A stretch of DNA of 64,000 nucleotides, taken from positions 160,001 to 224,000 of the IMG/VR virus record IMGVR_UViG_3300021254_000020. The stretch is one strand, 5' to 3'. Below the pieces are notes generated by a model. The model ran no database searches. It was not told the origin of the DNA and was given only the letters and a program-made list of their open reading frames with translations. The position numbers and the translations under genes are program-made. Source of the stretch: a virus. Lineage: Duplodnaviria; Caudoviricetes. Shown piece after piece: positions 5,104 to 17,857 of the stretch (positions within the stretch are counted from its first letter, which is position 1; the number at the start of each line of letters is the position of its first letter).

Positions 5104-5646
5104 GAGTTATGGATTGCGTTAGCTACCTTATACCGGTTATCCTCTGCTTCAAACTAGAATAGCAGTAACCCTCTTCGAGTAGCACGGAATTGTAATAAGG
5201 ATTTGGTTTATCAATTTGGCGGGTTATCAGATTGGGCTCGTTAAAAATACTACCAGGTATAAAAATAGTTTTATCAGGTTATCAGTTTAGGTACGTATAT
5301 CAATTTAACGAGTTATCAGTTTAGCCCATTTAAGCATCTTTGTATTTATGTGCTTAATTTGATTGAGGAAATCAATGTGACTCATTGTCCCCATATGAAC
5401 GCTCAGAGGGATTCGAACCCTCGTGATCTTTGCGATCGGAAGATTTTCGGTCTTCTGTGTTTAACCACTCCACCACAAGCGTTAACCATTCTGGTTATGT
5501 ATGAACAGCTTAAAAAGCTGGTGCAATCCTATTAGTCTTTTCTATTACCAAGAGGTAAGAGCATGTGGCCATAAGACATCTCGATTGCATTAGGAAAAGG
5601 CCCTAATTTGATTGAGGTTAATTCAGCCTCGTAATCCATAATTACT
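5104..5646 (-). ncRNA. candidate ~540-nt structured ncRNA with repeated TGATA motifs and an embedded tRNA-like domain
   Basis: No credible ORF; 5630-5641 pairs with 5107-5118 (11/12 bp); six TGATA-core motifs at 5208-5324. Confidence 0.6.
5398..5482 (-). tRNA. atypical class II (long variable arm) tRNA-like element; anticodon loop CCGAAAA (GAA in the canonical register)
   Basis: Cloverleaf: acceptor ACGCTTG/TGAGCGT, D arm GTG-GAGTGGTTAAA-CAC, anticodon stem GAAGA/TCTTC, variable arm GATC-GCAAA-GATC, T arm GAGGG-TTCGAAT-CCCTC; no encoded CCA. Confidence 0.75.
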
Positions 5647-7274: not shown

Positions 7275-9542
7275 TTACTCACATTTGCTCCAACCACAAT
7301 TACTGCAAGTCACACACTTTCCTTCAGGAATAAGTGTTTTCTTCCCGCACTCGGGACATACACGTTTAATCGTATCTTCCTCTTCCATATGAGCCTCCCC
7401 AATGTCTTGCTTCTTCATTACCAATTCAATAGCATCAGCAATAGCATTAGAGCAGGAGAGTGATACATCAAGTTCACCATTCCTACGAAGAAGCTGACAA
7501 GCAGGACATTGATTATTTCTCAGCTCATCTAGTACTCTAGTCAGTTTAACACCACTACGGAGTGATAAGGAGATCATACGAGTAATAGTGTTGATATTAG
7601 CCTGGCAACCACCGCTCGCATTAGTGAACACCTCAAAGATGTTCCCATCTTCCGTTTTATTAACTGTAACATACATAGATCTAGCACAGCTAGTACGTAC
7701 TCTCACTGTAGCACCTTCTACGTACTTAGTATTCCTACGACTAGGGGCATCGATACTATCATATGCAGGAACATATCCTTTAGGTACAGCTACCAGAGGC
7801 TCAGAGGTATCCTCATCATCCTTCTTCTTTTCTACACCAAGGATATTACCACGTTCGCATCCATCGACGAATACAGTGATACCTTTAAGCCCTTGTTTCC
7901 ATGCTTCCATATAGATCTCATAGATTTGTTCTTTAGTAGCATCATGGGGAAGATTAACAGTAGAACTGATCGCATTATCTACATACTCCTGAACTATGGC
8001 TTGTAGACGTACGCGATCCAAGTAAGGTACTTCATGAGACTCTATCAGGAACGGGAATCTCTTCTTAGCTTCTTCTACGCTAATACCTTCACAGTGATGG
8101 AATTTAAGAAGATCCTCTACACCACGAGCATATACCAAGAAGGTCTTTCCACTATCCTCCATGGAATGAGATGTACGTTCATAGGCGATCTTAAACATAG
8201 GTTCAATACCACCAGTATACTTACCAGCAAACAAGCTGATAGTACCAGTAGGAGCGATAGACAGAAGAGAACCATTACGAATACCATACTTCTTTATATC
8301 CCCATGCAGTTCAGGATAGGCTTGTATTTGAATAGACTTAAGAGTCTTATCAGCATCGAACTTCTTGAATGGTCCTTTAAGTTTAGCTAACTCAATACTA
8401 GTAATAAGAGCCTGCTTCATGAACTCATCCATTACGTCACTCATTAAGTGACGAGACTCTTCAGAACCATACTTGATTCCTAATGCTACGAAAGCATCAG
8501 CCATACCAAATATACCTAAACCAATGGAACGCCAATCATCAATAACCTGTTTGTTGAGTTCCAATGGTTGCATGTCTCTGCCGTAGTCTAATACTTCATC
8601 CAACATGCGTACTGCATAATGAACAGTATATTTCAAACGATCATAGTTGATATGAGCATGATCAGTAAACTTATCGTCTACCATTTCATAGAGATTAACC
8701 GAACCAAGATTACAAGAATTTCCTCTAGTACCAAAGTATTCGGCACATGGGTTTGATATATCTATTGTGTATTCAGGATATCCGCTCAGTAAATGAAAAC
8801 TACGCACACGCTCTATAAAAATAAGGCCAGGGTCCCCAAAACGGCGAGAGCACTCGCAGAATTCTTCGAAGAATTCTCTTGCATTGATTACGTTAGAGAT
8901 CTTTCCTGTCTCAGGAGAGTCAAAATGTAACTCAAAATCTCTATTTTCTTCTACCGCCTTCATAAATTTGTCAGTGAACTTGATACTGATATTCATAAAA
9001 GAGAGTTTCTCATTATTCTGCTTTACTCTGAGGTACTCATAGATATCTGGATGTTCGCAAGATAACCCGACCATAATAGCCGCCCTACGCCCGTTCTGTC
9101 CAATAACCTGACCTACTGTATCGAAGACATTAAGAAATGATACTGCTCCGCTGCTCTTTAGTGCTGAATTATTTACTCTTGCTCCTTTAGGACGAAGTGT
9201 ATCTATAGAAATACCAACACCTCCACCATAGGAGAAGATACGTGCCATATCCCTAGCAGTGTCAAATATAGATTCTATATTATCTTTGGGGATATTACCA
9301 AGAACATAGCAGTTGCTTGTACTTAGTTTACGTTTCCCCTTGTAGCCCGCCCCAAATAGAGTTCTACCTCCAGGTAAGAACCATGCCTTATCTAGTAGAG
9401 TATATGCATCATCCTTGATTTCATCACTAAAGATGCTTGCCAGTCTGGGAATGAACTCTTCTGGTTTCTCTCCTTCATGTAGATATTTACGAGTCATGAT
9501 TCCCATAGAGATTTCATTGTCATACCATTTCTTTTCACTCAT
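7275..9542 (-). CDS. nrdJ: class II (adenosylcobalamin-dependent) ribonucleotide reductase with C-terminal TSCPD-like and Zn-ribbon domains
   Basis: FLPGGR, SNCYV, GGGVG, RRAA, SNPCAE, SCNLGSVNL, IAPTGTIS, AISSTVNLP, GLKGITVF; C-terminal EGKCVTCSNCGWSKC. Confidence 0.92.
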   Translation of the reverse strand: MSEKKWYDNEISMGIMTRKYLHEGEKPEEFIPRLASIFSDEIKDDAYTLLDKAWFLPGGRTLFGAGYKGKRKLSTSNCYVLGNIPKDNIESIFDTARDMARIFSYGGGVGISIDTLRPKGARVNNSALKSSGAVSFLNVFDTVGQVIGQNGRRAAIMVGLSCEHPDIYEYLRVKQNNEKLSFMNISIKFTDKFMKAVEENRDFELHFDSPETGKISNVINAREFFEEFCECSRRFGDPGLIFIERVRSFHLLSGYPEYTIDISNPCAEYFGTRGNSCNLGSVNLYEMVDDKFTDHAHINYDRLKYTVHYAVRMLDEVLDYGRDMQPLELNKQVIDDWRSIGLGIFGMADAFVALGIKYGSEESRHLMSDVMDEFMKQALITSIELAKLKGPFKKFDADKTLKSIQIQAYPELHGDIKKYGIRNGSLLSIAPTGTISLFAGKYTGGIEPMFKIAYERTSHSMEDSGKTFLVYARGVEDLLKFHHCEGISVEEAKKRFPFLIESHEVPYLDRVRLQAIVQEYVDNAISSTVNLPHDATKEQIYEIYMEAWKQGLKGITVFVDGCERGNILGVEKKKDDEDTSEPLVAVPKGYVPAYDSIDAPSRRNTKYVEGATVRVRTSCARSMYVTVNKTEDGNIFEVFTNASGGCQANINTITRMISLSLRSGVKLTRVLDELRNNQCPACQLLRRNGELDVSLSCSNAIADAIELVMKKQDIGEAHMEEEDTIKRVCPECGKKTLIPEGKCVTCSNCGWSKCE

Positions 9543-13878: not shown

Positions 13879-14114
13879 TTATCCTACATTCTTATACTTA
13901 GCCTTCAAAGCTTTAATTCTGCCTATCTGATTCTGATTATAACGACGTCTACCCATATGAATAAAGGATTCCAGATTAATTACCGTATCCTTAAACACAT
14001 TTACGTCATTATTAAACAGACCGTCATTACGAGAGATACAGAATGCATTTCTCGGAGAGTAGACAGCCTCACATGCATTATCAAAGGCCTTATTGAGAAG
14101 CAACTTAATATTTA
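13879..14114 (-). CDS. RNA polymerase beta-prime N subunit, exon 3
   Basis: Reads (L)NIKLLLNKAF...SPRNAFCISRNDGLFN in frame after the micro-exon. Confidence 0.85.
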
Positions 14115-14654
14115 ATATGAATAGGTAGAGACCATGATATTATCTCATCTCTTTCCCCTCATTCGAACGCAGCAAGCGACTTTCATCGCACTACGCTTTC
14201 CATCGAGTATTATCCCGACTAGAGACCATTCCTCCATTCCCGTTACAGGAACTTCTTAGGTTCGATCTCCGCTTTTCAGCATAGGTTAAGATGCTTATCT
14301 CCATATGGTTTCGTCATCAATCTAAATCGACCTATACCTTTCTTTCGTTCAGATAGACCTATCATTACATACATATCCTTAGGTGCCTACTTTATCTATA
14401 TATACCTAGATAGTACCTGTAATACTATATGGGTGTTCTCAACTGCCACCTTACTAACCCACAATACATATAGATTTTAATAGTAGATTCGTGTCCCTCA
14501 CCATAGATATCTTATTGACTCCCGGTTTGTTCAACCGACTTTACCGAGCTACTAACCCTGATCTTTACAATCAACGCTAGTCGGAGATTAGAGGAGATAC
14601 TTCTAGGCGTTACCCTATCATTTTATCTCTCGGTCTACCCACACAAAATCGCAC
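14115..14654 (-). mobile_element. ORF-less group II intron (540 nt)
   Basis: 5' GTGCG; domain V AGCGTAGTGCGATGAAAGTCGCTTGCTGCGTT (~14165-14200); domain VI ending CCTATTCATAT; EBS1 GGCAGT (14442-14447) pairs with exon end ATTGCC; removal restores the frame. Confidence 0.9.
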
Positions 14655-14670
14655 GGCAATCTCCATCATA
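14655..14670 (-). CDS. RNA polymerase beta-prime N subunit, micro-exon 2 (TAT GAT GGA GAT TGC C = YDGDC)
   Basis: Supplies the missing part of the catalytic DxDGD motif; bounded by the group II GTGCG; complementary to the group I IGS. Confidence 0.82.
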
Positions 14671-14716
14671 TTTTAGGCTCACGCGCCGCAATTAGGAATT
14701 TAATGCGACACGATTT

Positions 14717-15830
14717 ATGAACGTACATTACTAAGACTACAGTATTATTATAAACACATCATAATCTAAGGTTGTTATTACCCTTTTCGGTAAACCCTCT
14801 ATATAATTCAGGATAGTTCTTGGTTATATTTTTAAAGGTTCTTCCAGTTCTTATAAAGCTCAAACTAGTTATGAACTTCTTATCATATGGAACTCCAAGA
14901 GCATTGGCTATCTGCATAGAATCCCTTCCAGCTACCATCATCTGGCATATTCTATCAACCGTAGAACCATCCCAAGTGTATCCCGATATATCATAATCCT
15001 TAGATATAGATTTCCATCGTTTTCCTGTTCTAATATCAGAAACCAGAGCAGCAAAATTCATATTATATGGAACTCCAACAATCTTAGCTATATCTGGTGA
15101 TTCCATACCTTGAGTAAGACATTGACAAATCGTATGAATCATCTTATATTTTTCAGCATTTTTGTTTACTGATACTATATGATAATTCTTTGCAATATCT
15201 TTCCAAGCAGTACCATTTCTGATATTGCTAATTAGAACTATCCATCGTCTATCATAAGGTACACCAAATTTTTCTGCTACTTGTTTAGAACTAATATTTG
15301 GATCCTCTAGCATTTGACAAATAGCATGCTTCATCTCTAATGGGAAATTAAAGATATGATCTCTATTTACATCATCGCTCAAAGAATACAACACATTATT
15401 CTGATAATCGGTCCACATAAGATTATCGAGTTTATTATGATATTTTACCTCATCTTTATGATGAACTAACTGACCATAATATGGATCCGATGTATCAGTA
15501 AGAAAAGTAATGGCTACCATTCTATGAACAAGCATCATAGCATCTTCTAATCTGCATCTAAGATATCCTTCCGGTAAAGATACTGGGTATATTTTCATCT
15601 GAGTAACCCTATCATATACGTTTCCGTAATTACTAACCAGATATCTCGGATTTAGTGGGAATATCCTAAATTCCTCATTAAGATAATATCCTAAAGTAAG
15701 AGCTCCATTAGAATAATCACTGGCTTTGTATTTATCTTGATTTTCTGCACCTGGTATAAATTCTTCCATTATATCACCTCCTTTACTATATGATTATAAA
15801 TTAACTGTAGTCTTAGTAATGTACGTTCAT
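14717..15830. repeat. perfect 27-bp inverted repeat (14717-14743 / 15804-15830) flanking the HNH ORF
   Basis: ATGAACGTACATTACTAAGACTACAGT and its exact reverse complement. Confidence 0.95.
14759..15769 (-). CDS. intron-encoded HNH homing endonuclease with three C-terminal HTH-like repeats
   Basis: YLVSNYGNV, VHRMVAITF, VHHKDEVKYHNKLDNLMW; 3x ICQ..GVPY..IR.G..W/FK.I.K.Y; AAGGAGGT RBS. Confidence 0.9.
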   Translation of the reverse strand: MEEFIPGAENQDKYKASDYSNGALTLGYYLNEEFRIFPLNPRYLVSNYGNVYDRVTQMKIYPVSLPEGYLRCRLEDAMMLVHRMVAITFLTDTSDPYYGQLVHHKDEVKYHNKLDNLMWTDYQNNVLYSLSDDVNRDHIFNFPLEMKHAICQMLEDPNISSKQVAEKFGVPYDRRWIVLISNIRNGTAWKDIAKNYHIVSVNKNAEKYKMIHTICQCLTQGMESPDIAKIVGVPYNMNFAALVSDIRTGKRWKSISKDYDISGYTWDGSTVDRICQMMVAGRDSMQIANALGVPYDKKFITSLSFIRTGRTFKNITKNYPELYRGFTEKGNNNLRL

Positions 15831-16259
15831 CAACAATTATCTAACCTTTCGGCTACCATAGACTATATCAGTCCCCCAGCATTACCTGGTAGGGTGCTAG
15901 CACTTCGCTACTAGGATCGTCAATCCGTTCGCTACAGGGAGCTGATCCCCTTAGTCGTTGAACCCCTTTCGAGGATGCTGATTGCCGATTTACTTCTATG
16001 CCCTTAGCACAGTCTATCTCTCCCTAGAAGTTGGGTATTCTACAATAGATCTGCTTTTATTTCAGCTTAGGCTATCTTTAGGATTTGTTTCTACTTTCGT
16101 AGCATGCCTACTATATAGACGATGCACCTAAAGCTTTACGATGTTCCAGCAGTTCACTAGCTCTCACTCACATATTACTATATGAGCGGACCATGATTTA
16201 GAAATTGTCTAAATCGCCCTTTTTTGTAATTTAGGCTCGCGCCTTAACAAAATTAGGGG

Positions 16260-17597
16260 GTCAGCCGCAAGTCCACTGAGGACGAATTGATCCAATGAGA
16301 GAACCGCACTGTCTGTATTGACTCCGACTACCCTCTTCCATACTATGGATTCGTAATGGATAGTAGGATTGCGGTTAATCAATACATGGATCTTATCCAT
16401 CTTAATCAGGTTGTTGAGGATATCTAGTACCCTCTGATCAAGCTGCAGTGTAGCATAATACCATTTCTTATATGCCTCAGCATATGTAATATTATAGCTA
16501 CTCTGTATGATATTGATCAATACCTGTTCTAAGAGCAATACGAGACCAGTATAGGGTAACATAACTTCGTCAGACCTCAGTTTACTATCCGGCACAATGA
16601 TAGACCGTTCAGAGAAAGCAGTACGTCCAGATATAGTAGAACGCATTATACCTCTCTTATCTGCTAATATGCGGATAATCTCATCAGAGAGTTCACTTAG
16701 CTTAACCTGCATATCCCAGAGAATCTGATTCTGTAGTTTGGGATTTCTATAGATAGAGAGAGTATCATTATTGAGTTGAGCTCCTAATGATGCTAAGATA
16801 TTAAAGGTAGCATTGGTTTTCTCGAAAGTAAACCGCTTACCTTCTACCTTAGCAATACGAAGCTGGGTGGTATAGATAGGGATAGAATGAGAGAATACAC
16901 AATCTCTATGCTGCATAATGAGATCGTATACATCCTTCTTATTTTTTCTTTTCTTTAAGAAGTATGCCAGTATCTCATCAAACTTCTCATAAAAACCCAT
17001 CATACCAAGGCTCTCATATTTAGAGTCTAATTTACTCTTCTTCTTATATCTACGAGCATTCTTTCTCTTAAAGATTTTTCTATCATATGAACTCATGGGT
17101 TTACCATCAGCATCGAGTTCGATAGCTGGTTCTAATATAGACTCCAAGTTATCTTTTCCGATGATGGAGATGAGTTCTACATAGATAGCAGGATTGATTA
17201 TATGATATTGATCCTTTAAATGGATATATCCAAAGTAGGTGAAATCATCACCTACTAATTTAGCGGGAGTTCCACAATAAGGACAGTAGAAGTTAGGATG
17301 GTCCATCACAGAATTAAATGCTCCTTGCAGATAGCCACAAGCACATTTGTATCTGTGAGAGAATGCTGCTTCATCTCCAAGCTGTCTACCAAACTTAGTA
17401 GAGAAGATAGATGTGTCACTCTTCAAGGATTTTTGAAGAGGTTGCTTTGAATCGATAATGAATGCTTGCCCAACACTCATATCTTTCTCAAACTCATTAT
17501 CAAGATTGAGTATAGACAGTTTAACGAAATAATCATATTCATTATCTCTAGGATAATGAATATTGAGTTTCACGTCTTTCAGGCTATTCTCATCCAT
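16260..17597 (-). CDS. multi-subunit RNA polymerase beta-prime N subunit, exon 1 (spliced product ~529 aa)
   Basis: Zn finger CACG..CPYCG, FGYIHL, KRGIMR..ISGRTAFSERSIIVP, INRNPTI; ends LAAD at the first catalytic Asp. Confidence 0.9.
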
Positions 17598-17599
17598 AA

Positions 17600-17857
17600 T
17601 TAATCCTCTCTAATAACCCAGTCATTAGCCAACATATCAGCTTGAGAAGCCAACCAACCAAGCTGTACTCCTCTAGTGCCTACGAAAGCTATAGCCTGAT
17701 TACCGATATCCTTATGATCAGCATTGATAATCTCACCACGAGCATTCATGTAAGAGATATTAGTGGCGAGTTCAATGTACTGATCTTTGCCATTCCATCC
17801 CATACGGGATACTCTCTTTCCTTCCTTCATTGCATTGATAGCTTCACCAAAATTCAT
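17600..17857 (-). CDS. DUF2829 / Tad2-like protein (candidate immune-signal sponge)
   Basis: MNFGEAI.AMK.GKRV.R.GWNGK...GWLASQADMLANDW signature. Confidence 0.8.
   Translation of the reverse strand: MNFGEAINAMKEGKRVSRMGWNGKDQYIELATNISYMNARGEIINADHKDIGNQAIAFVGTRGVQLGWLASQADMLANDWVIRED

Follow-up and report, generated by a model that had tools for sequence, protein, structure and literature searches.

How can a group II intron that encodes no protein persist in a phage gene, and does it splice alone, borrow a maturase or travel with a neighbour? The question is raised by the window, the whole 64,000-nt stretch analysed here from a tailed-phage record of 266,420 nt (rated 100% complete), in which the gene for the non-virion RNA polymerase (nvRNAP) beta' N-terminal subunit is interrupted twice. 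We consider it probable, and the best explanation, that the element is a splicing-only group IIB ribozyme without a cognate maturase, spread by DNA exchange.

The interrupted polymerase gene

On the minus strand the gene runs from exon 1 through a 1589-nt group I intron, a 16-nt exon 2 and the group II intron to exon 3:

16260–17597, minus strand: exon 1 of the nvRNAP beta' N-terminal subunit gene, ending ...LAAD (PHROG 2987, Pfam Rpb1_2, AR9 g270, phiR1-37 g274)
14671–16259, minus strand: group I intron of 1589 nt (recognised by P7 and the core motifs; 9/9 guide pairing at the exon junction; missing in L011 and L028)
14759–15769, minus strand: HNH endonuclease ORF, 336 aa, within the group I intron (PHROG 59, E 9.5e-31)
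14655–14670, minus strand: exon 2, 16 nt, encoding Y-D-G-D-C and one base of L (L011 fuses exon 1 directly to exon 2)
14115–14654, minus strand: whole ORF-less group IIB intron, class B-derived (Rfam matches, empty site in L013, length difference, open spliced frame)
13879–14114, minus strand: exon 3 of the same gene (matches the C-termini of intronless homologues)

AR9 g270, which exon 1 matches, is annotated as the nvRNAP beta' N-terminal subunit, and an intronless homologue (P0018) matches PDB 7s01 chain d (E 2e-37). Once joined, the exons give a stop-free protein of 529 aa with the motif ADYDGDCLNI. Exon 2 encodes two of the three catalytic Asp residues, and the group II intron interrupts the gene immediately past this catalytic motif; exon 3 is intact and conserved. 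Gene callers leave the subunit truncated, an annotation corrected here. Record names suggest that the relatives come from rumen samples. A Tad2-like anti-defence gene (17600–17857, minus strand), kept in close relatives, lies directly upstream of the polymerase gene, and a promoter scan yielded nothing above shuffles. Elsewhere the window carries a tRNA-Phe with a long variable arm (5397–5482, minus strand).

Identity and structure of the group II intron

The ORF-less intron spans 14654–14115 (540 nt, minus strand) and runs from GTGCG to AT, exactly where an earlier note, made from the letters, had placed its ends. That note had made its intron call dependent on a covariance-model match, and two were found: Rfam RF02004 (D1-D4-5) at 14646–14511 (91.4 bits, E 2.6e-18) and RF00029 (D5/D6) at 14200–14115 (43.1 bits, above its gathering score). 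The empty group II site of allele L013 pins both ends, and, measured from the first Asp codon, a downstream anchor lies 75 nt away in genes without introns and 615 nt away in L011, an excess of exactly 540. GTGYG by itself is frequent (160 sites); the covariance-model scores, the exact restoration of the frame and the covariation are beyond chance level. We regard the element as a confirmed group IIB intron derived from bacterial class B introns, a descent read from the RNA. Its parts are as follows:

14343–14648, minus strand: domain 1 (alignments, helix counts, segment lengths)
14442–14447, minus strand: EBS1 GGCAGT (6/6 pairs with IBS1; covaries among relatives)
14655–14660, minus strand: IBS1 ATTGCC, the final six bases of exon 2 (6/6 pairs with EBS1)
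14392, minus strand: EBS3 A (pairs with T at 14114, the first base of exon 3)
14505–14501 and 14383–14378, minus strand: zeta receptor halves of the 11-nt tetraloop-receptor type (sequence and alignment; putative role, after known structures)
14279–14337, minus strand: domain 2 (96/110 cells paired; 6/8 pairs compensated)
14271–14273, minus strand: J2/3 AGC (gamma A at 14273 pairs with the terminal U at 14115)
14222–14269, minus strand: domain 3 (basal stem, 77/78 cells paired)
14203–14218, minus strand: domain 4 remnant hairpin of 16–17 nt, without an ORF
14166–14197, minus strand: domain 5, with the AGC triad at 14197–14195, the GAAA loop at 14184–14181 and a UU bulge (Rfam, covariation)
14117–14162, minus strand: domain 6, with a bulged branch A at 14122, the 8th base from the end (Rfam alignment)

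The remaining features that had been read from the letters, namely the domain 5 triad and loop, the match between EBS1 and IBS1 and the reduction of domain 4 to a tiny hairpin, are all present. Subgroup IIB is marked by the EBS3–IBS3 pair, a 4-nt epsilon' bulge (AAGU; consensus AARC) and the branch A at −8. The EBS2–IBS2 pairing of this subgroup is absent, its ancestral segment having been deleted; a 5-bp substitute is possible in the window allele and is not kept in L017 or L077. A search for the alpha–alpha' pairing gave no confident assignment. The class B marks that are missing comprise the domain 4 reverse transcriptase (RT), the CGC triad (AGC instead) and the double-stem insertion in I(i,ii), although most phage relatives retain this insertion and several retain CGC. 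Three elements are missing from domain 1, two helices of which were assigned from Rfam pairing: the double-stem insertion close to the 5' end, an internal hairpin, and the EBS2 segment of ~41 nt. Further departures are the combination of the AGC triad with a J2/3 ending in C, the UU bulge in domain 5 (common to the window intron, L016 and L038) and an A-C mismatch in one domain 1 helix.

Covariation and the prediction of splicing

Base pairing was followed over 14 related introns, and the values are counts, not probabilities. Both stems of domain 5 are paired in 150/150 cells with 7/13 pairs compensated, stem I(ii) in 140/140 and the EBS1 stem in 98/98, with many compensated pairs. EBS1 changes in step with IBS1 through changes of site. 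With the EBS3 or J2/3 positions of L016, L095 and L089 set by eye from the alignment, EBS3 among the relatives is A where exon 3 starts with T and T where it starts with A (sole exception L038), and the pair between gamma and the last base occurs as A-U, U-A (L038), C-G (L095) and G-C (L086). Given the covariation of EBS1, EBS3, gamma and most helices among its relatives, the window intron very probably splices. It differs from L011 and from L028 at 3/540 positions each (0.6%), whereas the third codon positions in exon 1 differ by 8%; this contrast would reflect either purifying selection or a recent sweep.

A decaying remnant that no longer splices, with the subunit made otherwise, or an artefact of the contig, is very improbable: several deletions relative to the ancestor would suit it, but the arrangement was assembled independently in L018 and L019, exon 3 remains intact as well as conserved, and the intron has covarying pairings and changes less than synonymous sites do. 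Among the relatives, some site-1 introns (see below) end in AA, AG or CU instead of AY (L038/L071, L095 and L016, with matching gamma in L038 and L095), and unusual 5' starts occur in L078 (GGATT) and in L038 and L101 (GGGCG).

A splicing-competent intron would be removed from the mRNA through the usual two-step lariat pathway, its ends set by EBS1 (6 bp), EBS3 and gamma. The host gene, which we take by analogy with AR9 to be required for late transcription, would make efficient splicing a necessity. Constrained to the canonical fold, the RNA reaches −126 kcal/mol versus −151 for the minimum-energy fold; since the two differ, help with folding may be needed. Splicing without a cognate maturase could thus proceed alone or with generic host RNA chaperones. 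Such a state has a precedent in the ORF-less class B intron C.te.I1 of Clostridium tetani, which self-splices (PMC3919590, PMC4024640). Like the window intron, it is class B-derived, has no intron-encoded protein (IEP) in its genome and has lost EBS2 with adjacent stem-loops; in contrast, C.te.I1 has a shifted 5' site, has lost the branch A and splices hydrolytically and alternatively, whereas the window intron has normal ends and has kept its branch A.

Descent from bacterial retroelements

Introns of Enterococcus, Lachnospiraceae and Oscillospiraceae that encode an RT are colinear with the window RNA; their assignment to class B follows RNA features (PMC4024640) rather than an RT tree. The plasmid-borne intron of Enterococcus faecium (L080) and introns of Lachnospiraceae conjugative elements (L084, L087, L088) share 60–68% global identity with the window intron and have EBS1, EBS3 and J2/3 at the same positions; they carry the RT, EBS2, the double-stem insertion and the CGC triad, none of which the window intron has. 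EBS2 is paired at 4/4 in 35/36 RT-bearing bacterial sisters (observed mean 3.94 versus a shuffle maximum of 3.69), and this 4-bp element covaries with the exon.

Eleven phage introns in the nvRNAP beta' N gene form one clade against the bacterial introns (support 100/99). They occupy two sites 7 nt apart, site 1 inside the last Asp codon and site 2 after DGDC; the window intron belongs to the site-2 clade (support 96/97). All nine phage introns with a visible domain 4 are ORF-less, with 15–26 nt in that domain, and three more end at contig ends. The EBS2-bearing segment measures 23–24 nt in the phage introns versus 65 nt in L082, and every aligned phage intron lacks EBS2 (~41 nt lost). A CGAA/UGAA motif considered as EBS2 of the site-1 introns was rejected, as it is conserved in the bacterial sisters whatever the exon. 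In the window sub-lineage, which includes L101, the double-stem insertion and a domain 1 hairpin are gone as well, and this sub-lineage is the shortest seen.

Judging from the RNAs, these comparisons show that the window intron descends from class B introns of gut Clostridia that encode an RT. They likewise show that in the phage lineage the RT ORF, EBS2 and almost the whole of domain 4 have been lost, while EBS1, EBS3, gamma, domain 5 and the branch A have been kept. Single-protein and DNA-motif scans of viral contigs gave no matches. Two ORF-less class B-like introns were also seen in bacterial bins, the first (L082, 946–1675) within nrdD in a Lachnospiraceae bin and the second (L086) within a gene resembling traG/virD4 in a Blautia bin.

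Protein partners

The earlier note had found no RT or maturase in the window, and this extends to the whole 266,420-nt record: Pfam RVT_1 had no match in either, and tblastn and unfiltered HMM searches with three class-related RTs over the whole record reached a best E of 0.5 with no RT. The search for sister introns that it had proposed returned one D5/D6 match in the whole genome and no second copy. These searches covered the window phage's own genome. The note had left two routes, self-splicing or a maturase borrowed in trans; splicing without a maturase of its own appears to be the best reading, and a maturase supplied by the phage finds no candidate in its genome.

A trans-acting maturase could still come from a class B intron of the host. 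We consider it unlikely, though, that splicing and rare movement need such an RT/maturase from an intron of the host bacterium or from conjugative elements. Lachnospiraceae and Oscillospiraceae commonly carry RT-bearing sisters (119 matches among genome contigs, with about 69–78% local RNA identity over D1–D3), ORF-less bacterial introns nearly always share their genome with a related IEP (PMC4424553), and a 7-nt shift of site is easiest with an RT. Against this, EBS2 is lost, and only the basal stem of domain 4 is left, so that DIVa, where a maturase normally binds with high affinity, is gone. Tying an essential gene to a patchy host element would, moreover, narrow the host range. The shift of site probably needed an RT once. 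An ORF-less, EBS2-less clade at two sites is most simply explained with at least one RT-dependent reverse-splicing event, so access to an RT has presumably not always been zero.

Alleles, mobility and the neighbouring group I intron

Retrohoming is unlikely because the RT, most of domain 4 and EBS2, whose roles are established, have been lost; efficient retrohoming would no longer be possible for the window intron. DNA-level spread is plausible because the intron is patchily distributed over the host-gene tree. Both sites occur in two clades of that tree, and near-identical host proteins (L013, L078, P0096) differ in intron state (group I only, site 1 or site 2). DNA-level allele exchange appears to fit this distribution better than retrohoming. 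The intron would be inherited with its gene and gained or lost by recombination or gene conversion between co-infecting phages.

The earlier note suggested spread by co-conversion with the HNH homing of the neighbouring intron and proposed checking the two introns' co-occurrence in relatives. In that comparison they assort independently. Three alleles (L011, L012, L028) carry the same group II intron (99.4% identical) without a group I intron, and L013 has a different group I intron beside an empty group II site; both kinds occur in four alleles (window/L018, L029, L092 and L095) and group II alone in about ten. Co-conversion is therefore possible and not required.

That the group II intron is mainly a passenger of the adjacent group I intron's homing strikes us as quite unlikely. 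The two insertion sites lie 16 nt apart, four alleles hold both kinds, both introns are related in L029 and L092, and T4 MobE mobilises a neighbouring immobile intron (PMC2790892). Yet about ten group II alleles, two of them with the same intron, have no group I intron, L013 shows the reverse state, and L029 and L092 are sisters in the host tree, so that descent accounts for both introns there. The distribution of divergence also speaks against carriage: close alleles, otherwise 97% identical, differ by 7–19% over the last 440 nt of exon 1 (16260–16700), upstream of the group I site, versus 0.6% in the group II intron and 1–3% in exon 3. The recombination signal is thus located upstream of the group I insertion rather than across the group II intron. 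Divergence of 15–19% in the upstream block is also found in L011 and L028, so it is not peculiar to the window allele, and for this reason a reading of the block as a dated homing event was rejected. On these alignments the hypervariable 440 nt is apparently a hot spot of recombination or endonuclease escape, and conversion seems frequent at the locus with no visible carriage of the group II intron by this HNH intron. For the preferred reading, spread by DNA exchange, the adjacent HNH intron would be one possible driver, and a donor without the group II intron would cause its deletion as readily as its spread. The intron site would also be attacked by several HNH group I introns.

The group I intron is unusual in its own right. 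Its 5' splice site carries C in place of U, and its last base is A in place of G, with a canonical guanosine site in P7, and Rfam RF00028 had no match at its locus. A second A-ending group I intron lies in L013 (6339–7649, guide 8/9); those of L029 and L092 combine a 5'-site C with a normal terminal G, and L095, L022 and L023 are canonical. The window copy looks like a natural A-ending variant; literature searches gave nothing relevant on natural A-ending group I introns, which may still have been described. It may be the odder object of the two introns and the one deserving more attention. A long inverted repeat (14714–14764 and 15783–15833; 51 nt, 82%, exact core) sets the HNH ORF apart from the ribozyme as a loop, and two further genes related to the HNH protein lie in the genome at about 14260 and 43260. 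Short GC-rich hairpins (GGC-N4-6-GCC with AT flanks) lie near the ends of the intron (16227–16243 and 14669–14687), free-standing in the genome at 46969 and 63464, and, in either orientation, near group I ends in L029, L092 (5' end) and L013 (3' end). Another jumbo-phage lineage carries canonical ORF-less group I introns of ~410 nt at the same codon boundary (L022, L023, L047–L065), two members having about 560 extra bases. In L089 a group I intron interrupts nrdD (9118–9450).

Relation to known phage introns

The kind of element is already known. Merk, Jones and Eddy (2025) reported ORF-less introns matching D1-D4-5 in RNAP genes of the AR9-like jumbo phages Internexus, PALS_2 and LPJP1 (PMC12350094, Table S1), and one AR9 gene that holds group I plus group II introns (PMC12350094). 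The window intron resembles them in its D1-D4-5 and D5/D6 matches, its lack of an ORF and its place in a jumbo-phage RNAP gene. It differs in that theirs lie mostly in virion RNAP subunits, with none listed in nvRNAP beta' N or by the catalytic motif, and share 48–53% identity with it on a branch of their own; a tree with these published introns added leaves their attachment point, among other nodes, without resolution. The AR9 group II intron has a domain 4 endonuclease and LPJP1 has an RT-bearing sister, whereas the window intron has neither. We therefore place the window lineage, gene and site as distinct, judged by these sequence comparisons.

AR9 g270 itself parallels the window locus with an HNH group I intron in the same host gene and motif; unlike here, that intron sits after DYDG, has canonical U/G ends and is joined by no group II intron. 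In T4 mobE/nrdB, HNH carriage of a neighbour has been demonstrated (PMC2790892), whereas in the window it is no more than a possibility, with a group II intron as the passenger. The Korn 2021 preprint adds nothing on group II introns.

Implications

With this locus, the group II introns lately discovered in phages gain an independent lineage, and a clear reduction path can be traced from a Clostridia retroelement to an apparently splicing-only RNA in an RT-free genome. With 540 nt and a retained branch point, the intron is a compact candidate for tests of protein-free IIB splicing. The natural series of alleles with neither, either or both introns, at two sites, makes the persistence of immobile introns in phages testable. 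A tentative extension, which we hold to be doubtful, is that a long-lived, protein-free, EBS2-less clade without an RT moves by DNA conversion and is retained since it breaks the HNH endonuclease sites targeted by competitors (compare PMC11620839); the double-intron alleles weigh against an absolute role of this kind. If true, the group II intron would act as a shield in phage–phage competition at the RNAP catalytic codons of rumen jumbo phages.
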